This document shows, piece by piece, positions 6,051-26,733 of a DNA stretch of 39,963 bases (position 1 is the stretch's first letter; each line of letters begins with the position of its first letter). This stretch comes from Candidatus Bathyarchaeia archaeon (GTDB lineage Archaea; Thermoproteota; Bathyarchaeia; Bathyarchaeales; Bathycorpusculaceae): the NCBI GenBank assembly GCA_041479765.1, contig JBGOYR010000001.1:1-39963 (forward strand). Direction: 5' to 3'. Both the position numbers and the translations under genes were made by a program. A model generated the notes under the pieces. The model searched no databases, was not told the origin of the DNA, and saw only the letters and a list, made by a program, of their open reading frames with translations.

Positions 6051-7112
6051 TTATCTAGCCCTCCCTGCAATTTTCTCAACCTCAGCAACTATTTCATCAT
6101 AGCTAGGCACGATGCCGCCTACTCTGCTGTAGAAGTGCACGTTGGTCTTGCCGCAAACGGCAAGCTTGACGTCCTCCAGCATTTGGCCTAGACTCATTTC
6201 GACCACCAGAATATTCTTGATCTTTTCCGCGGTTTGGGCAAAAGCTTGGGCTGGAAAAGGGTAAAGCGAAATCGGTCTCAAGAGCCCAACCTTCAAACCC
6301 TCTTCACGAAGAATTTTGATGGCGGTCTTCGTGATCCGCGCCACCGTACCGTAAGCAGCTATTATTACATCGGCATCTTCAGTCATGTAGGATTCGAAAC
6401 GGACCTCGTTCTTGACAGCTTCGCTCATCTTGTGGGCAATGTCAAGGTTTCGTTTTTCAAGAACTATAGGATTCAAGTGGAGGGTTTTGATGATGTGTCT
6501 GGGTCTGCCTTTAGCTCCGGTGATCGCCCAGTCCTTTTCAGTCACAGAAGGCTTCTCAGAAGGCTTGAACTCTACAGGTTCCATCATCTGGCCGATGTTG
6601 CCGTCTCCCAGAATCATAACGGGGTTCCGGTACTTGTCGGCAAGATCGAAAGCAAGCATGGTGAGGTTCACAGCTTCTTGTGCTGTGGATGGCGCAAGAA
6701 CTATCAGGTGATAGTCGCCGTGACCACCACCTTTTGTGGCTTGGAAGTAGTCAGACTGCGAGGGCGCAATTCCGCCGAGACCGGGCCCGCCTCGCATCAT
6801 GTTCACTATGACGCAAGGAAGCTCGGCAGCCGCGATGTAAGAGATTCCTTCCTGCATGAGGCTAATCCCGGGACTGGAAGAGGATGTCATGACCCTGGCT
6901 CCTGCACCTGAGGCCCCGAACACCATGTAGATGGCGGATAATTCGCTCTCTGCTTGAATGAAACAACCTCCAACCTGCGGAAGCCTCCAAGACATCCGCT
7001 CACCAATCTCGTTCTGGGGCGTTATAGGGTAGCCGAAATAGAATCTGCATCCCGCCTGAATGGCAGCTTCGGCTATTGCGTCGTTTCCAGACATGAACTC
7101 TTTCTTCGACAC
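6051..7112 (-). CDS. 2-oxoacid:ferredoxin oxidoreductase, alpha subunit
   Basis: The N-terminus [19 protein letters not shown] is typical of OFOR alpha subunits. A GTG at 7112 immediately follows the delta stop (7115-7117), and an ATG at 7094 is the alternative. The track start at 7199 would overlap delta. Confidence 0.85.
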
Positions 7113-7114
7113 TT

Positions 7115-7348
7115 CTACTTCACACCTATCTTCTTCTCTCTGTAAACCTGAATCGCAGCGTCCGGACAAACCAGAGCGCACATACCGCAACCCGTACACT
7201 TGCCTTCAGGATCGACAAGCTCAGCTGGATGGTAACTCGTTTCACTAACGTGCTTTGCAGTTTGAAGAAGCCGCTGAGGACAAGCATTAATGCAGAGCTC
7301 ACAACCCTTACAGAATTTCTCGTTCACCACGACTTTCCCCATTTCCAC
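7115..7348 (-). CDS. 2-oxoacid:ferredoxin oxidoreductase, delta (2x[4Fe-4S] ferredoxin) subunit
   Basis: 77 aa with two CxxCxxCxxxCP motifs (CKGCELCINACP and CTGCGMCALVCP). A GGAGGG SD lies upstream. The gene order delta-alpha-beta-gamma resembles KOR-type operons, but substrate specificity cannot be called from sequence alone. Confidence 0.85.
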   Translation of the reverse strand: MEMGKVVVNEKFCKGCELCINACPQRLLQTAKHVSETSYHPAELVDPEGKCTGCGMCALVCPDAAIQVYREKKIGVK

Positions 7349-7468
7349 CCTCCATCAATAGTTACCAGACTTGACCGGGAACCCTTCTAGGTCGCACTCA
7401 ACCAGGAGCCTCAAGCTTCACTTTTGCTCCAAGGAGCAGTCAGAAAGTTCTGCCATATTAGCGTTAGG

Positions 7469-9262
7469 CTAGACAGACAGCAGAACTAACATCAGAAACA
7501 AGCCGCTAAGCGTGAAAATCGATGGAGCAAGTATCTTTGCCTTGTGGATAGCTCTATCCGTGAGCAGACATAGAGTTTCTAGCTGCTTTGCCCCGATGAC
7601 CTTGACCTTGGGAACGACTATCTTGCGGCAATCTATATTTTTGACAGGTTCCAGATTGGCCAAAGCGGCAAGTGCAGCTTTTTTGATATAGTTAATCAGT
7701 TTTTCGTTATCCATGGCTTCGCCTACGGGGTGATACCCGCGTTCACCCAGTATCACAGCATTCACCGCATGAGTATCTGTTGTGAAAATCTCACACTCAT
7801 TAAAACCGACAGAATGCAAGGCAGACAGAACACGTTCACGCAATCCAGACACCATGTTATTGCCATCAATAACCACGTAAGCAGTCTTCTGTTCACCGAC
7901 CTGAATCACGACGGCAGTGATACCTCCGGGTCCCATACCGTCACTTAGAGTGAATTCTTTTGGAAAGACTGTTGCGCCGCCAATGCCGAATGGCAGTCGT
8001 CCAAGTGAAGATGCCTTCTCTAGACAGGAAGATGCCACCATCTGTAGCGAGTCCAAGGCTTTTTGCATGTCTGAAATTCCGTTTATGCTGTTGTGGGCAT
8101 TGACAACTGCGGAACAAGCTAGGCCTTGCTTTTCGGCTTCTTGCTGAACGAAAAGCCCTAACTCCTTCGGAAAATCCTCAGTAGTCTCAGGCGCAAGCGT
8201 GAAAGAAATGAACACAAGATTACCGAAAACTTGACAGCAAGCTGTAGCCGTTCCATTGCTAACAGAGACGAAGGGCGACGCCTTTGCTTCTAAAGACTCG
8301 GCATTCTTGGAATGAATGATGCTGTCAATTATCTTTTGGTTCTGAGTTTGCGATGCTAGATCAAGTTCGTGACCGAAAAGGCCATGTGGAACGCAGACAG
8401 CGCAGCCCAGTTTCTTTTCCAATGTATTCTTGATCATCGAAGGCAGGATGCTGCTTCCGATGTTTTTGAATGGGCCTGGGTGAACTGAAGGAACGACTAT
8501 CATTGCTTTGGGTTGCGAAGAGATGAACTTCATCAATGAAACTTCGACATCTTGCTCTTCGCCCAGCTTCTCGAGAAGCTCCTCAAAAGGAGCATTCAAA
8601 TCCAACACCCAATTAAGCAGAAAAGCCTTCAAAAGAGAGAAGGACGGAACACCAAGTGCCTGTTTGCCTATCCGGTTGAGGAGAGATATGAAACAGAAAC
8701 TCGAAAGCAATGCCACGACTACTGAAAAAGCGAAGAATAGGCCCATCTGCACGGTTGGTGGAAAGCCCATTCTAGTCCAAAGAGCTAAGAACGGAACCGC
8801 GCAAGAGAGCGGTTGAAGAAATGCTGCTGTAAGAACACGCTTGTAACTCATACGGGATGTAGTAGTAAACACGATCAACCGCAAGATCAGCACTGCTGAA
8901 AACCCAAGAAGACAGAGCCTGATCCACCACAACAAGCCAGATGTTGCGGCGGCCATAGTGCCTACAAGGCCAAAGCACAACCATAGGACCATGCAAATGA
9001 GTGAAATCGCTGCGGTTCTTCTGAAGCTGAAAATGGGATCTCTTCTCAAAAGTAGCATGCTTACCACGTAGTCCAAGATGAAATTCACAAGAAACAGCGA
9101 AAAGCCTAAGAACAATGCATCAAGCAACCCATCAGGATACCCAAAAAGGCCGATTGTTGACAGAAAGCTTCCTCCAAAGCAGACTAGGGCCATGAGCAGA
9201 ATCACTCGTCTGTAGGATGGAAGTTTGAAAAGCGATGAATAGTGTTTGACTGCGTTGTCCAT
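7469..9262 (-). CDS. Large archaeal membrane protein (DUF2070-like: N-terminal multi-TM region plus C-terminal soluble domain)
   Basis: The track ORF is 620 aa. I prefer the ATG at 9262 (MDNAVKHYSSLFKLPSY...). There are about 7 hydrophobic helices, then a ~300-aa soluble part, then a final TM segment. The family assignment is from memory of the architecture only. Confidence 0.55.
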   Translation of the reverse strand: MDNAVKHYSSLFKLPSYRRVILLMALVCFGGSFLSTIGLFGYPDGLLDALFLGFSLFLVNFILDYVVSMLLLRRDPIFSFRRTAAISLICMVLWLCFGLVGTMAAATSGLLWWIRLCLLGFSAVLILRLIVFTTTSRMSYKRVLTAAFLQPLSCAVPFLALWTRMGFPPTVQMGLFFAFSVVVALLSSFCFISLLNRIGKQALGVPSFSLLKAFLLNWVLDLNAPFEELLEKLGEEQDVEVSLMKFISSQPKAMIVVPSVHPGPFKNIGSSILPSMIKNTLEKKLGCAVCVPHGLFGHELDLASQTQNQKIIDSIIHSKNAESLEAKASPFVSVSNGTATACCQVFGNLVFISFTLAPETTEDFPKELGLFVQQEAEKQGLACSAVVNAHNSINGISDMQKALDSLQMVASSCLEKASSLGRLPFGIGGATVFPKEFTLSDGMGPGGITAVVIQVGEQKTAYVVIDGNNMVSGLRERVLSALHSVGFNECEIFTTDTHAVNAVILGERGYHPVGEAMDNEKLINYIKKAALAALANLEPVKNIDCRKIVVPKVKVIGAKQLETLCLLTDRAIHKAKILAPSIFTLSGLFLMLVLLSV

Positions 9263-9492
9263 TGAAGCATTGAGCGAATTATCAGTCACAAGCACATCCT
9301 CTCGAGCGAAGCTTCTATGAGAGCAAATCAACCATATTAAAGTGTTGCGAATCTACGAACCGCATCGACAAGAGCATTCAGATATCGCTCAAGGAGGACG
9401 AATGAAAGCAGGGTCAATGGAAAGTGACATATAACTTAATAAGAGTGAATGTTTTATCTCTAAATGCCTGTTCTGAAGGTTTTGTCAAATCT

Positions 9493-9780
9493 ATGCCAGA
9501 TCAAGACGTTCCCCCCACAATCTTCCACATGCTTGAAAGAAATCTAGGCAAAAAGATACGTGTCATCTTGGATCCTGCCTACGGTTTTGAGGGAACATTA
9601 GCAGCCATGACCAGCGAACCGTCAGGAATATGGCTTTCAGACGCTGAAGCCATCATACTCAGAGCTACAATCGCTCAACCTATTCCAACAGTCGCAAGTA
9701 GAGAAGAAAGAAGTGAGATATTCATCCACTTGAACTCTGTACAAAGAATAGAAGTACTGCACCCACCAGCGCGCCGCTAA
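9493..9780 (+). CDS. Putative Sm-like (LSm) fold protein
   Basis: I prefer the ATG at 9493 over the GTG at 9424. LGKKIRVIL...FEGTL...IWLSDAEAI plus IFIHLNSVQRIEVL resembles Sm1/Sm2 motifs with an insertion. The assignment is weak. Confidence 0.45.
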   Translation: MPDQDVPPTIFHMLERNLGKKIRVILDPAYGFEGTLAAMTSEPSGIWLSDAEAIILRATIAQPIPTVASREERSEIFIHLNSVQRIEVLHPPARR

Positions 9781-9787
9781 AGAGCTT

Positions 9788-9958
9788 TTACTTGAAAAAG
9801 GCTTGCGCCAAGATACAAATCACTATTAAGCCTATTGCTGCAACTACCAATACTTCTGGCCTCACCTTGACTCCCTCAGTCTCCTCCTCGAAGAACCTGA
9901 GAAGTCCTGCACTTGCAGCAGGCATTGGTGACTTGCTTTCTTTTTTCTTCTTACTCAT
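9788..9958 (-). CDS. Preprotein translocase subunit Sec61beta (archaeal SecG)
   Basis: MSKKKKESKSPMPAASAGLLRFFEEE...VRPEVLVVAAIGLIVICILAQ has a basic N-terminus, the SAGLLRFF motif and a single C-terminal TM segment. The ATG at 9958 is preferred. Confidence 0.8.
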   Translation of the reverse strand: MSKKKKESKSPMPAASAGLLRFFEEETEGVKVRPEVLVVAAIGLIVICILAQAFFK

Positions 9959-10063
9959 CGCAGACCCCACTGATCTTCTGCACTGAAGTTGTACCTTCAT
10001 CTCCATTATTAATGTTACGTTGCCCCAAAAGAGTTTTTAGTTTTGACCGAATGATAATGTGAT

Positions 10064-11398
10064 ATGCAAAAGGTGTCTGCTGTGCCATCGTACCGAGACG
10101 AATATGATCATGTCTTTAGCCTTCTGGAACAACATCACAAATGGTTCCAAGAAAGCATCCCACTTATAGCAAGCGAAAACATTCCAAGCCCTGCCGTTCG
10201 CGAGACTCTTGTGACGGATTTTGGAAACCGTTACGCTGAAGGATGGCCTGGGGAACGAGTCTATGCCGGATGCCGCTTCATAGACCAAGTAGAGTTCAAA
10301 TGCATCGAACTCATGAAGAGACTCTTCAGCGCAGAATTTGTCGATGTCAGGCCAATCTCTGGCGTCGTGGCAAACTTGGCCGTGTATACAGCTTTCACTG
10401 AACCCGGCGACACATTGCTGGCACTCTCCATACCCTGCGGCGGCCATATCACCTCAGGTAAGAAGGAACTCGGAGGCACGGCAGGCGCAGTGAAAGGACT
10501 AGTCGTTGAGTACTTGCCTCTCGATTACAAGGAATTGAATATTGATGTAGAAAAAGCAAAGAACAAGATTCAAGAGCTTGCCGCAAAGGGCAAACCGCCA
10601 AAATTCGTAATGTTTGGCGCCAGCGTTTTCCCTTTTCCGCATCCAGTGAAAGAGCTCGTTGAGGCTGTTCACTCAGTCAACGCAACTGTTGGATACGACG
10701 CCGCCCATGTAGCAGGATTGATTGCAGGTGGGCAATTTCAGGACCCGCTAAGAGAAGGCGCTGATGTTGTAAGCCTGAGCACGCATAAGACGTTTTTTGG
10801 ACCTCAGCATGGCGGAATCGTGTCATGGGAAAAGAACGCTGAGAAGTTGAAGAAGGCAACCTTTCCGGGAATGGTCAGCAACCACCATCTGAACGCAGTT
10901 GCTGGTTTAACGATTGCTTGTGCTGAGATGCTCGAGTTTGGCAAGGAATATGCAGGTCAAGTGGTGAGGAATGCGAAGGCTCTTGCCCAAGCGCTTTATG
11001 AGAAGGGTTTCAATGTATTGGCTGAGCATAAGGGTTTCACTCAGTCTCATGTGATCTTGATAGACATAACCAAGCACGGCGATGGCGGCACTATTGAAGA
11101 AACCTTGGAGAAGGCAAACGTGATCATCAACAGAAACTTGCTACCGTGGGACATCAAGGAAGGCAGGCATTTCATGCACCCGGGCGGCATAAGGATGGGC
11201 GTTTCAGAAGTCACCAGAATAGGAATGAAAGAATCCGAAATGGGCACGATAGCAGAGTTCATCAAACGAGTGATTATCGACAAAGAACCAGTAGAGAAAG
11301 TGGGAGCGGATGTGGCGGAATTCCGCAAGGAATATCAGAAAGTGCAATACTGCTTCGAGAACACAACAGAAGCTTACAAGTACATAAGAATCCGCTAG
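10064..11398 (+). CDS. glyA: Serine hydroxymethyltransferase
   Basis: 444 aa. It has IASENIPSPAVRE, the PLP-lysine motif STHKTFFGPQHG, and overall SHMT length. Confidence 0.9.
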   Translation: MQKVSAVPSYRDEYDHVFSLLEQHHKWFQESIPLIASENIPSPAVRETLVTDFGNRYAEGWPGERVYAGCRFIDQVEFKCIELMKRLFSAEFVDVRPISGVVANLAVYTAFTEPGDTLLALSIPCGGHITSGKKELGGTAGAVKGLVVEYLPLDYKELNIDVEKAKNKIQELAAKGKPPKFVMFGASVFPFPHPVKELVEAVHSVNATVGYDAAHVAGLIAGGQFQDPLREGADVVSLSTHKTFFGPQHGGIVSWEKNAEKLKKATFPGMVSNHHLNAVAGLTIACAEMLEFGKEYAGQVVRNAKALAQALYEKGFNVLAEHKGFTQSHVILIDITKHGDGGTIEETLEKANVIINRNLLPWDIKEGRHFMHPGGIRMGVSEVTRIGMKESEMGTIAEFIKRVIIDKEPVEKVGADVAEFRKEYQKVQYCFENTTEAYKYIRIR

Positions 11399-19670: not shown

Positions 19671-20843
19671 CTATTTTATCTTCTTGACGACCTTCTCTAT
19701 ACGGTCCATTGCCTTTTCCAATTGCTCATATGCGGCAGCATAAGAGATTCTAATATAGCCTTCTCCATAGTTACCGAAAGCAGAGCCCGGAACCGTTACT
19801 ACGCCAGCCTCCTTGACGAGAAACTCGGCGAACTCCTCTGAGGACTTGTCAAATCCTCTGATGTTCGGAAAAACGTAGAAGGCACCCTTCGGAAGCGCAC
19901 ATCTGAAAGGAGGCATCGCGCTAAGCCGCTTATGAACAAGGCGTCGACGTCTGTCGAACTCCAGAACCATACCTTCGACAAGTTCCTGTGGGCCCCGTAA
20001 CGCGGCCAACCCCATATACTGTGAAGGACTGTCAACTGAAGCAACCGTGTATTGATGAACTAGCCATAGTGGGGCAAGAAGCTCCTTAGGGCCGTAAACA
20101 TATCCGACCCTTAGACCTGTCATCGCATAAGTCTTCGAGAAGGAGTTAACTATCAAAGTGCGTTCACGCATCCCTGGAAACGTCGCAAGATTATAGTGTT
20201 TGGCGCCATCGTAGACCATCTTTTCATACACCTCGTCACAGATCACAAGCAAATCACGCTCGACAGCAATCTTCGTCAATGCTGCCGCTTCATCATAAGA
20301 AAGAACGGCACCGGTCGGATTACTTGGGAAGTTAAGAATAATCACACGTGACTTGTCCGTAACAAGTGACATCACATCGCCGGCCGACGGCCTAAAATCG
20401 TTCTTTTCAAGCAAAGGGACAGACACGGGAACAGCCCCAGCCAGTGTCACACATGGTTCGTAAAGTACAAATCCAGGATTCGGAATCAGCACTTCATCAC
20501 CAGGATTCACCAAACCCATCAACGCCAGAAAGATTGCCTCGGTCCCACCTACAGTAATCAAGATCTCTGAATCAGGATCATAGTTGAGTCCATAATCGCG
20601 GTAGGCCTTTTGGGCAAGCGCCTCGCGGAGTTCAGGGATACCGTTGGTTGGGGCATAGTGCGTCTTACCATTTCGTGTAGCTTGGCAACCAGCGTCTACA
20701 ACGTGTTGCGGAGGCGAAAAGTCGGGCTCCCCCACGCTCAAATTTATCGAATTCCGCATTTCACTGGCCAAAGCGAAAAACCGGCGTATTCCTGACGGCT
20801 TTATGTGTTTAAGGCGTTCCGCGGGTTTGAAACGTGAAGCCAA
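19671..20843 (-). CDS. Class I/II PLP-dependent aminotransferase (aspartate aminotransferase-like)
   Basis: It has FPSNPTGAV and SFSKTYAMTGLRVGY (PLP lysine). The track ORF extends to 21035 (454 aa). A TTG at 20843 lies 6 nt after GAGGAG and gives a typical ~390-aa protein beginning (M)ASRFKPAERLKHIKPSGIRRFF. An ATG at 20966 is another option. Confidence 0.8.
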   Translation of the reverse strand: MASRFKPAERLKHIKPSGIRRFFALASEMRNSINLSVGEPDFSPPQHVVDAGCQATRNGKTHYAPTNGIPELREALAQKAYRDYGLNYDPDSEILITVGGTEAIFLALMGLVNPGDEVLIPNPGFVLYEPCVTLAGAVPVSVPLLEKNDFRPSAGDVMSLVTDKSRVIILNFPSNPTGAVLSYDEAAALTKIAVERDLLVICDEVYEKMVYDGAKHYNLATFPGMRERTLIVNSFSKTYAMTGLRVGYVYGPKELLAPLWLVHQYTVASVDSPSQYMGLAALRGPQELVEGMVLEFDRRRRLVHKRLSAMPPFRCALPKGAFYVFPNIRGFDKSSEEFAEFLVKEAGVVTVPGSAFGNYGEGYIRISYAAAYEQLEKAMDRIEKVVKKIK

Positions 20844-21025
20844 GGCATGCTCCTCAGTAGCAATAACCCCGCTCGGAATAAAATGTTTGTGTTCTAGAAT
20901 CTGTCCTATAAAACACGGAACTGCGATAGTTTTAAGAGCGAAGCCTGTATACAAAGTCGTATTCATTACGTATAACGCCTGAGGAGAGAGATTTGAAGCT
21001 GAAAGAGGGCCTTCAACCGTGGCTA

Positions 21026-21472
21026 ATGAGCTCACTGAACGACCCCATTACAAAAATTCTGGCCAAAAACAGCCACTTAACCACAACGCAGCTAGAAACA
21101 CTCTTGATCGACATTTTGTCCGACAATATAGCTGGCAAAACGCTGAAATACGACGAAAAGGCCTCCTTGAGACTAACTAAGGCGAAAATAACCCGCGGCG
21201 CCTTTAACAGGACAGCCAGACAGGCAAAAGAGAACGTCATAAAATCCATCTATACAGTATTGCTCCTAGGGTACTTGGGAATCTTCGAAAGCACGGTTCT
21301 GGACCCCTACCTAGAAATAGCGCACAAATTGCGGGACTATCTGGAGGCCTACAAAAGCATCCCGAACACGAGCGACAAACTGGAAGAGCATCTAAAAGTC
21401 ATAGAAATGATAAGAGAAGAGCTTGAAACGAGCCTAGAACAGCTCTCAAATCCATCAGAAGGCCTTTCGTGA
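21026..21472 (+). CDS. Hypothetical protein, possible HTH (Tfx / sigma-70 region-4-like) DNA-binding protein
   Basis: Start is either the ATG at 21026 or the TTG at 20993. LTTTQLETLL...KITRGAFNRTARQAKENVIKSI resembles an HTH followed by a helical tail. The coding call comes from ORF length and ordinary amino-acid composition. Confidence 0.5.
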   Translation: MSSLNDPITKILAKNSHLTTTQLETLLIDILSDNIAGKTLKYDEKASLRLTKAKITRGAFNRTARQAKENVIKSIYTVLLLGYLGIFESTVLDPYLEIAHKLRDYLEAYKSIPNTSDKLEEHLKVIEMIREELETSLEQLSNPSEGLS

Positions 21473-21755
21473 CGTCACAAGTCACATAAGAAGTGATGTC
21501 GTTTCAGGCACTTGTGATGCAATCAAACGAGCAGCCGTAAACAAGTCTGGTTTCTGTGATAGAGCCTAAAATGAGGTGGTCAGGAGGTACTAAATCGCCC
21601 AAGTACCGCATGGTCTTTGGCGTCTTGGCTGTGACGTGTGATGTCATGGAACCATCAACTCATGGTAAGAACCATAAATCTTAAATGCTGTCATGGTAGA
21701 AGTGTGATGTGTGATGCAACACGATAAAATCACACATGATCACATGTGAATCACA
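21470..21755. repeat. Dense array of TCACA/TGTGA cores (mostly TGTGATG / ATCACA), likely an operator array
   Basis: Exact cores lie at 21474, 21481, 21513, 21555, 21630, 21637, 21703, 21710, 21729, 21739, 21745 and 21750, plus an AGTGATG variant at 21492. There is a 10-bp palindrome TCACATGTGA at 21740-21749, a TGACGTCA palindrome at 21470-21477, and TGTCATGG twice (21643, 21687). Confidence 0.8.
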
Positions 21756-21767
21756 GAGAGGGCGAAC

Positions 21768-22481
21768 TTGCCAGAGATCTTGCTTATCCTTGCGGCAGCA
21801 ATACTTGCTGTAACGGCAGGCATCTTGGTCAGGCATCTGCGAGAACTTCGCAAGGCTCAGAAGGCGTACCAAAAAGCTAGAGAAGCGGTTGAAGATATTG
21901 TCTTGAGTTTCAATAGACAGTTCAAACGTGCGGCGGAACGCTTAGAACTCGTTGCGTACAAGGTTGAGGCTAACACTTCGCGTAGTAATAGGGCTGTAAG
22001 TAAAGCGGAAGAGGTTGAGAAGCAACTTCACGCGTTAGGTGAAAGATTTGGCTCTGCCTTAGAGGACAAGAACAAAGTAGCAGCGAGAATTGATGAAGTT
22101 GACCAACGAGTACGTGATATCGTCACATCACAGGAAGCGTTTACTACGAGAATCTTGAGCCTAGAAGAACAGGCGAAGAAGCTTTCAGTGATTCCTGAGC
22201 CAAATGTTGAAGCAGTCATCCCCATAAAGAGAGATAAAGCGTTAGCTCCGTTGACGGGAACTGAGTTAGCGGCACTTGAGATGTTGGCTGCTGAGGGGCC
22301 TAAGACAGCGCCTGAGATTAAGTGGCGGATAAGACTTAGCAGGGAACATACAGCACGGTTGATGAAGAAGCTTTACGAAGAGGGATACTTGGAAAGAGAC
22401 CCGAGCAAGATTCCGTTTAAGTATAGCGTTAAGAAAGAGATGGAGAGACTGCTTAAGAAACCTGAAGGCCAAGCAACGTAG
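21768..22481 (+). CDS. Membrane-anchored coiled-coil protein with C-terminal winged-helix (MarR/TrmB-like) domain
   Basis: 237 aa with a TTG start. It has an N-terminal TM helix (ILLILAAAILAVTAGILV), about 130 aa of heptad-like charged helix, then LTGTELAALEMLAAEGPKTAPEIKWRIRLSREHTARLMKKLYEEGYLER. Confidence 0.6.
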   Translation: MPEILLILAAAILAVTAGILVRHLRELRKAQKAYQKAREAVEDIVLSFNRQFKRAAERLELVAYKVEANTSRSNRAVSKAEEVEKQLHALGERFGSALEDKNKVAARIDEVDQRVRDIVTSQEAFTTRILSLEEQAKKLSVIPEPNVEAVIPIKRDKALAPLTGTELAALEMLAAEGPKTAPEIKWRIRLSREHTARLMKKLYEEGYLERDPSKIPFKYSVKKEMERLLKKPEGQAT

Positions 22482-22643
22482 CCTATTGTGGAGCACTGAC
22501 TCATTGATACTGAGCTATTTCAGGCGCTTCTCCATACTTGAGAGCCCTGTGATTCTGGAAGCCTATAATCCACTTCCCCTCTTCTCTCAACCCCACCCCT
22601 ATTGGCATTTTGCTTGAAAAAGAGCTTGAACGCGATGCTGTTC

Positions 22644-23075
22644 TCAAGACGTCTGTTGTTTGATGATTGCTTGCGAGATTTCTGGAGCCGTTTTGTACTT
22701 AAAGCTATTAAATGCTCCCGACTTCAACACTGTTCCTTTTCCTGTCATCCTTGCAAGGTAGGTTGCAACGGTGCTTAAGCTGATGGGCTCCTTGAACTCC
22801 TGTTCATAGACGGACTGGACCTCTCTTGAAGAGAACCAGACGACCGGAAAGTGTTTCTGAACCACACTACGAACCTTGTCATACTTAGATCGCTCAGCAC
22901 TGGCAACAGTGTCACCAACGGTTGGGCTGTTTCCGCCACTTGGCATACCGCCAAGCAACTCGACCAAATCCAGAAGTCGTAGAGCCTTGTCTCTAGTCAC
23001 TTGTCCCTCGAAGCTTATCGAGTATCGATTCCCCTCAGTATCTGATAGCTCAACGCGAATTTTCTTGGCAGGCAT
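22644..23075 (-). CDS. Small winged-helix DNA-binding protein (uncharacterised)
   Basis: I prefer the ATG at 23075 (MPAKKIRVELSD...); the track start is a GTG at 23120. The C-terminal part FSSREVQSVYEQEFKEPISLSTVATYLARMTGKGTVLKSG looks like a wHTH. Confidence 0.55.
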   Translation of the reverse strand: MPAKKIRVELSDTEGNRYSISFEGQVTRDKALRLLDLVELLGGMPSGGNSPTVGDTVASAERSKYDKVRSVVQKHFPVVWFSSREVQSVYEQEFKEPISLSTVATYLARMTGKGTVLKSGAFNSFKYKTAPEISQAIIKQQTS

Positions 23076-23099
23076 TGACGTTGCGCACCTTAAGGCGGT

Positions 23100-23423
23100 C
23101 TTCACAACTTTACACTTCACATGTTATAGGTATTACGGTGAAAACAGCAGCAGTAAAAAAGGAGAAGGAAGCCAGAACGGCGAAAAGTGGCGAGGATTGA
23201 GGTTTTAATGACATTACAGGCTTCACAGGGTTGCCCAGCCGTATTTGGAAAGAGGAAAAGCCGCAAGTCTGTAGTTCCAATAGAAGCCTAGGGGTGCACA
23301 TTTCACAGAAACGAAACACGAACAGGGCAATAAAGGTAAAAAGAAGGAAGCGAAAGAAACGTTTCGCAGTTAACTTCACAAGGACTTCACAAAGTGTGAA
23401 GGAAAGATGCTGTCGACTTCACA
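23100..23423. repeat. CTTCACA heptamer (iteron-like) array
   Basis: Exact CTTCACA on the + strand occurs at 23100, 23115, 23221, 23374, 23385 and 23417, with an inverted copy TGTGAAG at 23395. This forms the 17-bp palindrome CTTCACA-AAG-TGTGAAG (23385-23401). Variants are TTTCACA at 23301 and TTTCACT at 23462. Confidence 0.8.
23275..23296 (+). other. ORB-like origin recognition box 1
   Basis: TTCCAATAGAAGCCTAGGGGTG: a TTCCA...GAAG dyad-like half followed by a GGGG string. Confidence 0.6.
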
Positions 23424-23541
23424 TACATTAGAGCCTTCGGCGAAATCTGGTCTGAGAAAAATTTCACTAGGAGTTTCCAAAACACACCAAAAAGCAGGCA
23501 AGGGCATGAGAAGTACATACCCATTACCGTTCGAGCACCGG

Positions 23542-23563
23542 CACCCCTTGACTTCCATTGGAA
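23542..23563 (-). other. ORB-like origin recognition box 2 (inverted)
   Basis: The reverse complement is TTCCAATGGAAGTCAAGGGGTG, identical to box 1 at 19 of 22 positions. It contains the palindrome TTCCATTGGAA. Confidence 0.6.
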
Positions 23564-23584
23564 ACTCTTGCGAAGTAGAAAGAC

Positions 23585-23725
23585 TGCTGTTTACTCTGCA
23601 TAAAGATTTCCTGTTTTCATCTAAAAACTTTAACTGATGTATTTTAAATCACGAAATCACTACTTACCGTACAGGGTATATCTCTTCATTAGGAAGAGAT
23701 CCACATTATTTTGCAAACTAATACA
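23585..23725. other. AT-rich stretch, candidate duplex unwinding element
   Basis: By hand count, 23591-23650 has 15 G/C in 60 nt. It lies between inverted ORB box 2 and the half-box and box 3. Confidence 0.5.
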
Positions 23726-23736
23726 GGATCTGCACA

Positions 23737-23751
23737 GGAAAGACAGGGGTG
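23737..23751 (+). other. Half ORB-like element (G-string half only)
   Basis: GGAAAGACAGGGGTG shares the GGAA...AGGGGTG half with boxes 1-3 but lacks the TTCCA arm. Confidence 0.35.
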
Positions 23752-23854
23752 TGTGGGCATGACCATTAACCCCAGTATTTCATATGGTGAATCTGGCTCG
23801 GTTTTACGCTTCTTGTGCGGCTGATTTAGTTTTCTGTACGGCAGGTCTTATCTT

Positions 23855-23874
23855 TTCCACGAGAAGTAGGGGTG
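23855..23874 (+). other. ORB-like origin recognition box 3
   Basis: TTCCACGAGAAGTAGGGGTG has the same architecture as box 1 with a 2-nt shorter spacer. It overlaps the GTG (23872) that opens the orc1/cdc6 ORF. Confidence 0.55.
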
Positions 23875-25152
23875 TTGCTTCTGAAAGAGAGAGTGAGGAC
23901 TTTGGATAACTCAAACATACTCGACGATGTATTCGATAAATGCGTCAGCAACACGAGAATTTTCAAGGATCGAGAAGTGTTGAGGCATGATTATCTGCCC
24001 GGTAGGCTACCTCACCGTGAGGAACAGATCAGAGAACTTGGCGAAACCGTGGCACCGGTTCTGAAGGGGGCGAGAAGCTCTAACATTTTCATATATGGAA
24101 ATACTGGCACGGGGAAGACAGCGGTGGCAAAATATGTCCTGAGCCACTTAGAAGCCAAGGCCAAGGAGTTCAACGCACCAGTGAGGTTCTGTTACGTGAA
24201 TTGCCGCATGGCCGCGTCGGAATACCGCGTCTTTGCGAGTTTGTGCCAAAGCACAGGAATCACTGTCCCGTTCACAGGTCTTTCCGTTGGTGAAGTCTTT
24301 GACAGGTTTCGAACAAGCTTGGACGCCTCTAAAATAATATTCATCATAGTTTTGGATGAGATTGACGCCTTGATCAAAAGCCGTGGTGATGGGCTCCTAT
24401 ATGAATTGACGAGAATCAATGAAACCTTGGCCAGAAGCAAGGTTTCTGTGATCGGCATCTCAAATGACCTTCGCATGAAAGAGTTCCTTGATCCGCGCGT
24501 ATTGAGTTCGCTTAGTGAGGAAGAGCTTGTCTTTAGGCCCTACGATGCTGACGAGCTGAAAAATATCCTTTCCGAGCGGGCGGTCTTGGCATTCTTCGAT
24601 TCAGCTCTATCTGCTGGCGCTTTGGCTCTTTGTGCAGCATTAGCGGCTGCGGAACACGGAGACGCTAGACGAGCCCTGGATCTGTTGCGAGTTGCTGGGG
24701 AAGTTGCGGAGAGAAAGGGTGCAACGGGAGTTGTCGATGAGCATGTTAGGGAGGCCGAAAAACACATTGAGCACAACCGTGTCGTTGAGGGTCTCAAAAA
24801 CCTAACGCTTCATTCGAAGCTTGTGGTATTGAGCGTTTACCACCTCAAACTCGCCAACGTCAACAGTGCAGTGACAGGCGATATCTACGATGTCTACAGC
24901 GAACTGTGCATGGAGCTAGGCGTTATGGCGTTGACGCAACGCCGTTTATGTACATTGGTAAACGAGCTTGACGCTATGGGGTTGTTGAATGCGAAAGTTG
25001 TCAGCATGGGCAGATATGGCCGAACAAAGAAGATCAGATTGGAGTTGCCACGCACGCTCGTCAAGGACGTTTTTGCAGAAGACAACAGGCTTGGTCCCTT
25101 AGTTGCTTACTTGCCGAAATGCCTTGCAAAACACGCACCTAATAGCAGTTGA
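23872..25152 (+). CDS. cdc6: Orc1/Cdc6 replication initiator
   Basis: 426 aa. It has LPHREEQI, Walker A GNTGTGKTA, Walker B IIVLDEID and a C-terminal winged helix. The start is uncertain: GTG 23872, GTG 23893 and TTG 23902 are all in frame. Confidence 0.9.
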   Translation: MLLLKERVRTLDNSNILDDVFDKCVSNTRIFKDREVLRHDYLPGRLPHREEQIRELGETVAPVLKGARSSNIFIYGNTGTGKTAVAKYVLSHLEAKAKEFNAPVRFCYVNCRMAASEYRVFASLCQSTGITVPFTGLSVGEVFDRFRTSLDASKIIFIIVLDEIDALIKSRGDGLLYELTRINETLARSKVSVIGISNDLRMKEFLDPRVLSSLSEEELVFRPYDADELKNILSERAVLAFFDSALSAGALALCAALAAAEHGDARRALDLLRVAGEVAERKGATGVVDEHVREAEKHIEHNRVVEGLKNLTLHSKLVVLSVYHLKLANVNSAVTGDIYDVYSELCMELGVMALTQRRLCTLVNELDAMGLLNAKVVSMGRYGRTKKIRLELPRTLVKDVFAEDNRLGPLVAYLPKCLAKHAPNSS

Positions 25153-25170: not shown

Positions 25171-26733
25171 CTAGGCGAACGATGCGACTGTAACCTCGAA
25201 TGTCTGAAGGTTCACTACTGGAACCTGACCTACCGTTGGCATCAGTCCCATTCTTTGCATGTAAGTTGTCTGTTCCTGCCATCCACCTGAGTTTATGATT
25301 GAAACTCCACGGTAGTTGACATACCCGAGCACGTGAACATGACCGGCGTGGAAGATGTCTGGGGCCCGCTCTATGACTAGAAAATCCCGACTTTCTGGCG
25401 ACAACATTGTCTTCCCACCATACAAGGGTGCCAGATGACGGCCCTGCAGGAGTAACTTCATGGCTTTCTCTGGATGTTGATAAGCCATGCCAGGAACAGT
25501 TGCCATGATGTCATCCAAGCTACGGCCATGGTCCATCAACACTTCCACCCCGTGAATGTTGACGGTGCACGGGTTTCCGAGGGAGTACACGTTTCGCGAT
25601 TCTTGTAGCGTTTCTAGGTACTCTTTGGATAATGCCGGTTGGGGAGCAGCTTTTCGTGTTGCATCATGATTCCCTGGTATGATCACGACTTCTATGTAGT
25701 CTGGGATTTGCTCGATGTATTTTGCTGCGTGCCGGTACTGTTTGTGGATGTCCTTAACCGCAAGTTCTTTCACTTGATTGGGGTATATGCCTATGCCGTC
25801 GACAATGTCACCTGCTACTAAGACGTATTTGACGTGGGCAGCAGTTTCTCTCATTTGCTCATTCCCATACTTACCATTGAGCCAAAGGACGAACCGACTG
25901 AAAGCTTCTCTGTTGAACTTGGCGCTTCCCACATGAAGGTCCGAAGTGAGCACAACATAGACAGGCTCTTGAGCGCGATGGGGAATCTTCTGGGCCACGT
26001 CCGGAAAGATAATGTCTTCAGCGATCAGCAGAGTGCCTCGTGTCTTGACTACGCTTAAGCAGACAACTTGGTCAAGTAGCAGCGCCCGAGCTTTCTTCTT
26101 GACTTCTTCAGGGGCGTTCTGAGGCACAAGAACTGTGATATTTGCCTGCAAATCTTCCACGGTTAAGATGGTTCTCTGCTTGGACTCGCGCTTCTCAGTC
26201 ACCATGCCTATTATCTTGAGTTTCGCGTTCGGCGCAGCTCGTAATGCATCTATAATCGAAGCCGCTGTTTTGACGTCTATGCGTTGCCTCAGGAGCTTCT
26301 CAATTCTCTTGAACCTGTCCCGAAAATACTCTAGATAATCGTCGATCGTGCCGTTCGTGCTGAGCTTGGTAGTGGGGTCTTCGATTACGTTGAGGTTTGG
26401 CTCGATCTCTCTTGCAAATGGGCGAAAGGGGTTCTTGGCTTCGGCTATTTGAGGTTCTGGTGTAGGCGTTTCTTTGGCAGGGTGTTCTGGCGGCTGAATA
26501 ACGATCTCTTTGGACGGTTCTGACTCTGACAGCAATTGTTCAAGGAAGCCCTTGTCGATGAAAAGCGGCTTCTCTTCGAGGTTTCCTATCTTCTGGAGTG
26601 CTTTGTTCATTATTTCACTTGGGTCTTCGCTTGCGGCTGCGACACTTAGGAATTCGAAGGCTTCTCGGTTCAGCTGGTAGCCTGCAGTGATTGTCAAAGC
26701 CACCGCTTTCTGCAGTTTCTCCGTTCCGCTCAT
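25171..26733 (-). CDS. polB: DNA polymerase II (family D) small subunit DP1
   Basis: 520 aa. It has an OB-fold region followed by calcineurin-like phosphoesterase motifs (DLHVGS, GDIVDG, GNHD, GHVH). Confidence 0.9.
   Translation of the reverse strand: MSGTEKLQKAVALTITAGYQLNREAFEFLSVAAASEDPSEIMNKALQKIGNLEEKPLFIDKGFLEQLLSESEPSKEIVIQPPEHPAKETPTPEPQIAEAKNPFRPFAREIEPNLNVIEDPTTKLSTNGTIDDYLEYFRDRFKRIEKLLRQRIDVKTAASIIDALRAAPNAKLKIIGMVTEKRESKQRTILTVEDLQANITVLVPQNAPEEVKKKARALLLDQVVCLSVVKTRGTLLIAEDIIFPDVAQKIPHRAQEPVYVVLTSDLHVGSAKFNREAFSRFVLWLNGKYGNEQMRETAAHVKYVLVAGDIVDGIGIYPNQVKELAVKDIHKQYRHAAKYIEQIPDYIEVVIIPGNHDATRKAAPQPALSKEYLETLQESRNVYSLGNPCTVNIHGVEVLMDHGRSLDDIMATVPGMAYQHPEKAMKLLLQGRHLAPLYGGKTMLSPESRDFLVIERAPDIFHAGHVHVLGYVNYRGVSIINSGGWQEQTTYMQRMGLMPTVGQVPVVNLQTFEVTVASFA

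Follow-up and report, generated by a model that had tools for sequence, protein, structure and literature searches.

In a 39,963-nucleotide stretch of DNA from a Bathyarchaeia archaeon (hereafter the window), three consecutive uncharacterised genes, referred to here as open reading frames (ORFs) 1, 2 and 3 and together as the trio, are placed between a class I/II aminotransferase gene and the replication initiator gene orc1/cdc6. This order had already been pointed out in a note made from the letters of the window alone (the original prediction), which also proposed that the trio shares one vocabulary of short repeats with the adjoining replication origin, oriC. Here, we show that 1) the trio stands beside orc1 in one conserved order across related loci and in four deep lineages, 2) each of its genes carries a motif class of its own, and 3) where the locus has been rearranged, the TTCACA boxes on the ORF3 side follow the 5' side of that gene together with auxiliary origin recognition boxes (ORBs), never the core origin. 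Judging from sequence comparison, the trio and its motifs are strong candidates for tying gene regulation to the start of replication in archaea, in a manner not described before.

Three uncharacterised genes beside orc1

Related loci were obtained in a scan with one genome per species, which yielded 80 loci with an Orc1 72-88% identical to that of the window and with labels that are nearly all Bathyarchaeia; six window proteins were compared with these loci by tblastn. The denominators 66 and 72 used throughout are the loci with enough flank, 66 for the ORF1-ORF2 spacer and 72 for the ORF3-orc1 spacer. ORF1, ORF2, ORF3 (minus strand), the ORBs, orc1 and the PolD small-subunit gene (DP1, minus strand) follow one another in a single order in all 66-72 loci with enough flank, with 257-396 bp between ORF1 and ORF2 and 697-805 bp between ORF3 and orc1. 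Synteny and motif co-occurrence, whose absence from relatives had been named as grounds for abandoning the original prediction, are thus both present, in that the trio, the repeats and orc1 occur together in every flanked locus. In 25 of the 67 related loci compared, a nurA-herA pair (Pfam NurA; DUF87/HerA) separates ORF2 from ORF3, on the strand of ORF3 and directly downstream of it (e.g., L001 2201-4751), a placement that suggests co-transcription of ORF3 with DNA end-resection genes.

None of the three proteins matched a characterised family in Pfam, NCBIfam or PDB sequence searches, or in Foldseek for ORF1 and ORF3, and their public names are 'hypothetical' or a generic 'MarR family', which bears out the view that the trio is uncharacterised. 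ORF1 had no match in Pfam, NCBIfam, the PDB (queried with the single sequence and with a profile) or per-member Pfam scans. Its family comprises 267 clusters at 50% identity and about 2,700 sequence clusters at 90% identity, and full-length matches in the related loci are 65-89% identical (70-89% over 66 species), which is approximately the conservation level of Orc1. The stretch VSRGAFNRT..QA..N is invariant and resembles a helix-turn-helix. The AlphaFold2 model of ORF1 is poor (predicted local distance difference test, pLDDT, 53), and Foldseek with this poor model gave no meaningful match. The gene had been placed at 21026-21472; its existence is upheld, and we move its start, most likely to TTG 20993, given that the extra 11 N-terminal residues are conserved and that GGAG precedes the codon. 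The aminotransferase ORF as listed (19671-21035, minus strand) is over-extended at its 5' end and would cross the ORF1 promoter and start codon; its true start is probably 55-65 codons further in, because its Pfam domain begins only at residue 96.

The winged-helix character ascribed to ORF2 and ORF3 is supported by a Pfam match for the former and by AlphaFold2 and Foldseek for the latter. Specifically, ORF2 scored 26.5 bits against Pfam MarR PF01047 (cut-off 24.6), its central part gave coiled-coil-type matches to SMC, MukB and Rad50, and public sources label it only as 'MarR family' or 'hypothetical'. All lineages keep a single N-terminal hydrophobic segment (Kyte-Doolittle 2.6 in the window) with a basic stretch after it, and they also keep the recognition helix SREHTARLMKK. 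This hydropathy pattern fits a membrane anchor with the remainder of the protein in the cytoplasm, the insertion being predicted from hydropathy only. In ORF3, residues 61-130 are modelled as a winged helix (AlphaFold2 pLDDT 72-86) with best Foldseek matches to the winged helices of MecI, BlaI, Fur and RosR (E about 5e-3), where a template modelling score of 0.34-0.40 for MecI and BlaI corresponds to generic winged-helix likeness; the score against Pfam Penicillinase_R PF03965 (18.7 bits) is below the cut-off of 22.6. Nothing matched the N-terminal domain of ORF3, a beta-hairpin plus helix in a low-confidence model. All 2921 ORF3 homologues are named hypothetical, and the recognition helix S-T-(V/I)-(A/S)-T-Y-L-x-R is kept in every lineage.

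Table 1 Positions of the genes, motifs and predicted origin elements in the window (DUE, DNA-unwinding element)
Feature	Position	Strand	Description
ORF1 promoter	20930-20962	+	TATA-like TTTTAAGAG at 20930-20938, then GTATAC-N6-GTAT at 20947-20962
ORF1	20993-21472	+	159 amino acids; uncharacterised family, predicted all-alpha
Palindrome at ORF1 stop	21469-21486		GTGACGTCAC and flanking AGTCACA half-site; overlaps ORF1 stop codon
Block in ORF1-ORF2 spacer	21630-21647		TGTGACGTGTGATGTCAT; consensus TGTGATGTGTGACGTCAT, 80-99% column identity
ORF2 promoter/leader	21671-21760	+	TATA-like ACCATAAATCTTAAAT at 21671-21686; TGTGATG TGTGATG at 21703-21716; three RATCACA at 21728-21755; Shine-Dalgarno GAGG
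ORF2	21768-22481	+	237 amino acids; predicted membrane anchor (residues 3-21), coiled coil of about 120 residues, MarR-type winged helix (162-213)
ORF3	22644-23075	-	small protein; C-terminal winged helix, separate N-terminal domain
ORF3 promoter	23100-23130		CTTCACA at 23100-23106 and 23115-23121, TTTACAC between; TATA-like gttatagg at 23123-23130 (minus strand)
TTCACA box 3	23221-23227	+	exact in 61/72 loci, at most one mismatch in 72/72
ORB1	23275-23297	+	auxiliary; 23-nt inverted repeat with ORB2; ORB pattern match
TTCACA box 4	23301-23307	+	four bases past ORB1; exact in 53/72 loci, at most one mismatch in 71/72
Triple box	23374-23401		two direct CTTCACA 11 bp apart and an inverted copy, giving TTCACA-N3-TGTGAA
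Predicted core origin	23541-23755		ORB2 (minus) 23541-23563, DUE 23564-23728, ORB3 (plus) 23729-23755
ORB4	23856-23875	+	TCCACGAGAAGTAGGGGTGT; overlaps orc1 GTG start codon; ORB pattern with one mismatch
orc1/cdc6 initiator gene	23872-25152	+	Pfam Cdc6_C, Cdc6_lid and AAA domains
PolD small-subunit (DP1) gene	25171-26733		convergent with orc1

Motif classes and origin architecture

The motif strings first reported for this locus, TCACATGTGA at 21740-21749, CTTCACA at 23100 and 23115 and gttatagg at 23123-23130, are all found at these coordinates, and in both winged-helix genes repeats are indeed placed after a TATA-like element and before the start codon, in the window as well as in the conserved blocks of relatives. 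We noticed that the repeats fall into three classes, one for each gene: GTATAC-N6-GTAT for ORF1, GTGAY/RTCAC palindromes with phased ATCAC copies for ORF2, and TTCACA for ORF3. Each class appears to sit downstream of a TATA-like element and ahead of the start codon of its gene, which would be the usual geometry of repression in archaea. In 64 of the 66 loci with a delimited spacer, the ORF1 class is represented by a single site, located 30-45 bp ahead of ORF1, and in relatives the TATA element ahead of it is of the TTTAAAAG type; elsewhere in about 1 Mb the only match was a palindromic reverse-strand one at the same site in L022.

The RTCAC class is concentrated in the 302-bp spacer between ORF1 and ORF2, where [AG]TCAC[AG] occurs 12 times (P about 5e-13 in the window). 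The palindrome over the ORF1 stop codon has the consensus TGTGACGTCACAAATCACA with more than 90% column identity across the 66 loci, and the ORF2 promoter of relatives reads TGTGATGTGTGATGCAAC, followed by RATCAC copies ahead of the ribosome-binding site. The number of ATCAC copies ranges from 2 to 7 between species while their period of 10-11 bp is constant, and copy-number variation of this kind, with the helical period unchanged, is more in keeping with bound protein than with RNA structure. Loci without the aminotransferase gene (L044 2435-2545; also L035, L046-L048, L052, L061, L068, L077 and others) have a second, dense array of 5-8 RTCACA/TGTGAT sites, partly spaced at 10-11 bp, some 400-500 bp ahead of ORF1, with no ORF of at least 70 amino acids between this array and ORF1.

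On the ORF3 side, TTCACA occurs eight times on either strand within 330 bp, an excess (Poisson P about 1e-11) over the 0.51 per kb of the remaining window, and seven of the 14 CTTCACA matches in the window are in 23100-23423. Beyond the two copies in the ORF3 promoter, CTTCACA or TTTCACA is found at 23221, 23301, 23374, 23385, 23395 (minus strand) and 23417. Seven of these eight boxes are conserved in position, each with an exact match in 53-66 of the 72 loci and with at most one mismatch in 70-72; the remaining box, at 23417, was seen in this window only. The promoter boxes are exact in 65 and 62 of the 72 loci within a block, GGTGTTCACAACTTTACACTTCACAAGTTATAG, of 85-99% column identity, and the copies of the triple box in 66, 53 and 53. 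Mean column identity is 0.86 at the eight box positions and 0.82 at the ORBs, as opposed to 0.51 in other spacer columns. Altogether the 72 ORF3-orc1 spacers hold 445 TTCACA in 55 kb, whereas the background holds 524 in 853 kb, or approximately 6 per locus against 0.6 per kb; 372 of the 445 are on the strand of orc1 and 73 on the other. K-mer enrichment in relatives is extreme in this spacer as well as in that between ORF1 and ORF2. Clusters of at least three TTCACA are almost confined to the ORF3-orc1 spacer in about 1 Mb of related loci. We also observed an extra cluster of five TTCACA/TGTGAA copies in L049 (4698-4739), between the convergent 3' ends of ORF2 and ORF3. On the plus strand, the stretches between boxes at 23120-23220 and 23280-23360 are strongly biased towards purines (AT skew to 0.74, GC skew to 0.50), and in relatives their A-richness is retained, not their sequence.

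That the repeats arose by chance is ruled out by these window statistics together with conservation over 66-72 species. The proposal of one repeat vocabulary holds in part: TCACA is common to both sets, but the three motif classes differ in evolutionary linkage and do not make up a single vocabulary. In the 72 relatives, 86% of the origin-side sites have T before TCACA, whereas in the 66 ORF1-ORF2 spacers this base is A or G in 94% of sites and T in 3%, and RTCAC alone persists where no origin is nearby (see below); on these two grounds we rejected a single shared repeat.

The ORB pattern, a dyad plus G-string, gave five matches in the window, all within 23276-23875, where 0.42 were expected. 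With four to five ORBs and a DNA-unwinding element (DUE), the predicted origin is of the archaeal Orc1-dependent type, which has an inverted ORB pair, an AT-rich DUE and an adjacent orc1. We assign the DUE to 23564-23728, the stretch of lowest GC (23-37%), on the fine composition profile and on the divergent ORB pair that surrounds an AT-rich stretch in distant loci (L086, L088 and L115 all have it); a DUE between ORB1 and ORB2 was considered and dropped on the composition profile and the ORB orientation in L086 and L088. The consensus of ORB1 in relatives is TCCAGTAGAAG..AGGGGTG. ORB4 is conserved as TCCACAcGAAAtAGaGGTG, and its position over the start of orc1 suggests that Orc1 represses its own gene. 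No TTCACA box was found within the DUE of the window. Because the DUE lies between the divergent ORB2 and ORB3 and all boxes are left of ORB2, the boxes adjoin the core origin rather than lie inside it. The heptamer had been described as running into the origin and bracketing ORB1; the bracketing is real (boxes at 23221 and 23301 around 23275-23297), but the run does not reach the core origin.

Rearrangement and loss of the origin linkage in deep lineages

Divergent members of the ORF1 family were taken from a profile search of 1.8 billion representative proteins and their contigs looked up. In four deep lineages (L084, L086, L088 and L115), in which ORF1 is only 25-37% identical, the trio, the repeats and orc1 are again found together. 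L088 (ORF1 30%) has ORF1, ORF2, ORF3 (minus), orc1 and PolD DP1, with PolD DP2 upstream; four GTGAA boxes adjoin the start of its ORF3, followed by ORBs and then the DUE. L084 (37%) has the same genes with hypF inserted between ORF1 and ORF2 (rearrangement at 8918-11254). L086 (33%) keeps the usual gene order except for an inserted corA (9381-11001), which leaves ORF3, TTCACA/TGTGAA boxes and two ORBs on one side and a clean ORB-DUE-ORB with orc1 on the other; the order of ORB then TTCACA that characterises box 4 recurs here. In L115 (25%), ORF3 is inverted and thus on the strand of orc1 (7099-7993), boxes and one ORB are upstream of ORF3, and the core ORB-DUE-ORB is between the 3' end of ORF3 and orc1. 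No TTCACA box was found in the core origins of L086 and L115, where the L115 core has one TTCACT match (7855). In the rearranged lineages, therefore, the boxes follow the 5' side of ORF3 and the auxiliary ORB or ORBs, never the core origin. The upstream flanks of all four lineages carry PolD DP2 and PcrB directly upstream of ORF1 on the opposite strand, so that the trio and the origin are bracketed by both PolD subunit genes; an Elf1-type zinc ribbon is also present in the upstream flank of L086 and L088.

Another clade carries the trio away from any nearby origin. One member of the ORF1 family is labelled Nitrososphaeria archaeon, and a gene on the same contig clusters with Candidatus Wolframiiraptor, i.e., Caldarchaeales. 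A metagenome scan returned 25 such Caldarchaeales-like loci, whose flanks were examined to 8 kb. Their gene order is UPF0147, ORF3-like, ORF1-like and ORF2-like on one strand, and no orc1, PolD, ORB or TTCACA cluster was found within 8 kb of the trio in any of the 25. The ORF2 of this clade is short (124 amino acids), with the membrane anchor and the MarR winged helix and without the long coiled coil. In most of these loci a GTGAY/RTCAC palindrome is present at the 3' end of ORF1, ahead of ORF2, with an extra half-site approximately 10 bp upstream, and this palindrome is better conserved than the amino acids that its bases encode. A GTCTAC...GTATAAC motif akin to GTATAC-N6-GTAT occurs upstream of the ORF1-like gene in this clade and in L115. 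In 17 of these 25 loci (L090-L113; e.g., L081/L090 7110-7394) the UPF0147 gene (PF03685) immediately precedes the trio and shares its strand, and a conserved promoter block, TTGGCCAYTTAAAGATTATATCTGAAGC, lies between it and the ORF3-like gene. The occurrence of the trio without a nearby origin indicates that it is a unit of its own; retention of the palindrome assigns the RTCAC class to the ORF1/ORF2 pair; and the absence of TTCACA near the trio of this clade means that the TTCACA class appears only where ORF3 abuts ORBs. Gene content, synteny, the motif classes, their positions and their deep conservation can all be seen directly in the loci compared here.

A self-regulated module and its possible link to replication

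We propose that the trio is an ancient self-regulated module and that, in Bathyarchaeia and allied lineages, its ORF3 control region is joined to the auxiliary side of oriC, a proposal that we hold to be evenly poised between right and wrong. From motif position and protein type we infer which protein would bind which motif, that repression would follow, and what effect, if any, replication might experience. The trio proteins would bind the three motif classes and repress their own genes. ORF2 would most likely occupy the RTCAC sites as a membrane-anchored dimer, and among the protein-motif links put forward here, that between ORF2 and RTCAC is the best supported. The binder of the TTCACA boxes would be ORF3 itself. 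Fusion of the ORF3 control region with one or more auxiliary ORBs means that Orc1 at ORB1 and the putative TTCACA binder would share about 330 bp of DNA, on which a multi-site nucleoprotein array might assemble beside ORB1 and tie ORF3 transcription to occupancy by the initiator.

Several observations weigh against this proposal. Position is what assigns each protein to its motif, and the placement between TATA element and start codon hinges on TATA-like motifs chosen by eye. No confident fold was obtained for ORF1, whose helix-turn-helix is a sequence impression only. In the Caldarchaeales-like clade the recognition helix of ORF3 is conserved, yet no TTCACA box is near the gene, so that the ORF3 of this clade would have to act on sites further away, unless ORF3 is not a TTCACA binder in the first place. 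A simple auto-repressed promoter would not need as many as seven boxes over 330 bp. Finally, conservation beside an origin has misled before, as with OapABC, which turned out to act in vesicle formation (PMC10927574).

Two further readings would add to the self-regulated module rather than exclude it. In the first, ORF3 or another trio protein is a direct accessory origin factor that, bound to the TTCACA array, alters firing and could help or hinder Orc1 loading or recruitment of MCM, in parallel to UBP at the ucm motif of Sulfolobus or to CtrA, Spo0A and IHF at bacterial oriC. The interleaving of the boxes with ORB1 at conserved spacing, in an order repeated in L086, their conservation to the same degree as the ORBs and the near confinement of box clusters to the ORF3-orc1 spacer are all in line with this reading; seven sites over 330 bp suggest a higher-order complex, and the trio is found beside orc1 and PolD throughout a deep divergence. 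Moreover, the authors who described the origin-binding protein UBP, discussed below, ask about analogous origin proteins in other archaeal lineages (PMC12141716). However, no box is in the DUE or at the core ORB pair, the boxes are cut off from the core origin by corA in L086 and by ORF3 itself in L115, and the Caldarchaeales-like trio has no origin nearby. In addition, the essential elements reported for Sulfolobus oriC1 are ORB2, ORB3 and the ucm motif (PMC12141716), and by analogy an outlying ORB region may be dispensable. We regard a direct role at the origin as possible but rather unlikely. It is likewise doubtful that the trio forms a complete origin-encoded accessory system, in which ORF3 would polymerise on the TTCACA array and gate Orc1-dependent initiation, ORF2 on the RTCAC sites about 2 kb away would hold the origin at the membrane, and ORF1 would be a third DNA-binding partner; ORF3 would then be a counterpart, without homology, of UBP/ucm or of CtrA at Cori.

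The linkage could also be one of neighbourhood only, with the TTCACA binder encoded elsewhere (e.g., a second Orc1/Cdc6 paralogue or a general chromatin protein) and the trio consisting of local transcription factors that stand beside orc1 for historical reasons. Such a history would accommodate the Caldarchaeales-like ORF3, which lacks TTCACA boxes despite its conserved recognition helix, as well as the boxes of Bathyarchaeia-type lineages, which always travel with ORBs, and OapABC sets a precedent for conserved origin-side genes of unrelated function. It is harder to reconcile with the rearranged lineages, where the boxes stay at the 5' side of ORF3 with the auxiliary ORBs, away from core origin and orc1, and with the two boxes that overlap the ORF3 promoter in 62-65 of 72 species. 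Synteny that persists to 25% ORF1 identity and one motif class per promoter in all three genes further argue against it, and we consider mere neighbourhood unlikely.

As a second addition to the self-regulated module, anchored ORF2 bound to the RTCAC arrays, which lie 1.8-2.1 kb from the DUE, might keep DNA near the origin at the membrane, so that it can be segregated or sequestered. RacA, HubP-linked systems and sequestration by SeqA offer functional parallels in bacteria. The anchor and basic stretch are kept in every lineage, including the 124-residue form of the Caldarchaeales-like clade, with essentially no extracellular part for sensing; the long coiled coil fits a spacer or oligomerisation domain; and the arrays reach 7-10 sites around ORF1 and ORF2, in some species with further sites upstream of ORF1. 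However, the Caldarchaeales-like ORF2 and palindrome are away from any origin within the 8 kb examined, and tethering of an origin cannot therefore be the ancestral role. The single palindrome and half-site of these loci resemble an ordinary operator, the cluster contains no partner ATPase or segregation gene, and hydropathy prediction is what places ORF2 in the membrane. Overall, a tether seems distinctly improbable.

Least probable is a cis-regulatory RNA, with translation controlled by a leader hairpin of the TGTGATG / ATCACA inverted repeats before ORF2. In the predicted hairpin, 21702-21715 would be paired to 21729-21745 (-21.2 kcal/mol), but its z-score is only -1.9 with 10 of 200 shuffles folding at least as well, the repeats vary from 2 to 7 copies at their fixed period without compensating change in the other arm, and the same motif recurs in other arrangements at the ORF1 stop codon and far upstream of ORF1. 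A non-coding RNA or riboswitch in the ORF1-ORF2 spacer was likewise rejected, given the absence of any Rfam match there, the weak fold z-score and a copy-number variation unlike that of a hairpin.

How the start of replication is controlled in archaea is poorly understood, and our literature search returned no paper on Bathyarchaeia origins or on the trio proteins and, as the sole accessory origin motif with a known binder, ucm with its protein UBP, which does not extend beyond Sulfolobales and Desulfurococcales. The components of the present locus are ordinary, i.e., winged-helix regulators, operators and ORBs. What appears to be undescribed is the ORF1 family, a membrane-anchored coiled-coil protein of MarR type, the allotment of one motif class to each gene, and the fusion of the module with the auxiliary side of oriC across an archaeal class. 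A large uncultured class thereby gains a defined, predicted origin architecture, with a DUE, four to five ORBs and, apart from the ORBs, seven boxes of conserved position, together with three uncharacterised and strongly conserved candidate binding proteins encoded beside it, and natural rearrangements show which of these elements travel together. Were the module purely regulatory, the new ORF1 family, the putatively membrane-anchored MarR-type ORF2 and one operator class per gene from Bathyarchaeia to Caldarchaeales would still stand; were gating by ORF3 and tethering by ORF2 to prove true, archaea would have their first described regulatory circuit linked to an origin and a first candidate for a tether between origin and membrane.

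Comparison with known systems

The original prediction likened the locus to iteron/initiator pairs of plasmids, to WhiP and to partition proteins, but none of the features tested for the Rep/iteron, WhiP/Cdt1 and ParB-type systems was found here. What is shared with WhiP, the Cdt1 homologue at Sulfolobus oriC3, and with Rep/iteron pairs is a winged-helix protein encoded next to an origin. No CDT1 family match was found in the trio (Pfam), ORF3 has one winged helix rather than a tandem, and it had no PDB sequence match; likewise, no Rep family matched ORF1, ORF2 or ORF3 at E <= 1 (Pfam). Rep/iteron systems pair a WH1-WH2 Rep with regular iterons of approximately 17-22 bp by the DUE, whereas here a single winged helix is accompanied by irregularly spaced boxes of 6-8 bp (11-106 bp between them), which lie 140-460 bp away from the DUE, and the initiator is clearly Orc1 with ORBs. 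The conserved cluster contains no ParA/SegA-type ATPase, its optional insert being nurA-herA.

ORF2 resembles MarR regulators in scoring above the Pfam cut-off and in its palindromic operators between TATA-like element and start, which would fit auto-repression. MarR regulators, however, are soluble dimers of about 140-160 amino acids that dimerise through N- and C-terminal helices, while ORF2 has an anchor and a long coiled coil instead, with the winged helix at the extreme C-terminus. BlaI and MecI are the best structural matches of ORF3, but ORF3 is below the Pfam cut-off and its N-terminal domain is unrelated; no gene for a BlaR1/MecR1-type sensor protease was found in the cluster of the window or in the 66-72 related loci.

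OapABC of haloarchaea, now ArvABC, is likewise a three-gene cluster conserved beside orc and oriC and was presumed to be replicative; OapA is a small GTPase that drives vesicle formation, and OapB and OapC carry DUF2073 and a zinc ribbon (PMC10927574). These proteins have no homology to the trio and, unlike it, lack DNA-binding domains and shared repeats, which makes the present case the stronger one. In bacteria, CtrA (Caulobacter), Spo0A (Bacillus), MtrA and AdpA are regulators with boxes among the initiator boxes of oriC, and IHF is another factor that binds there. The former four are (winged) helix-turn-helix regulators whose boxes are interspersed with those of the initiator and whose own circuit is coupled to initiation, and regulators of the CtrA and Spo0A type may be regarded as the closest mechanistic parallels. 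They differ in being response or global regulators encoded away from oriC, for which binding has been shown, whereas the trio flanks the origin, has no receiver domain and is read from sequence.

Among archaea, the system of UBP and ucm, an essential non-ORB motif at Sulfolobales and Desulfurococcales origins that is bound by this small protein (Dhanaraju et al. 2025, PMC12141716), invites the most direct comparison. UBP, with more than 300 genomic sites, forms a strand-swapped homodimer on beta sheets and uses beta-hairpins for DNA contact, and ucm is in the middle of the DUE (PMC12141716). The placement of ucm within the DUE between essential ORBs contrasts with TTCACA boxes outside the core origin, as does a beta-sheet homodimer with hundreds of sites with the winged helix of ORF3 and box clusters found almost at one locus in the roughly 1 Mb sampled; ubp, moreover, is not described as adjoining an origin (PMC12141716), whereas the trio genes lie beside one. 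PDB sequence searches with ORF1, ORF2, ORF3 and the ORF1 profile returned no related chain, and the Foldseek matches of ORF3 are winged helices. Both systems nevertheless combine an archaeal origin of the Orc1-dependent type with a short, conserved motif other than an ORB and with a small non-initiator binder, known for UBP and predicted here, and UBP/ucm would thus be the closest functional precedent for the trio and its boxes.

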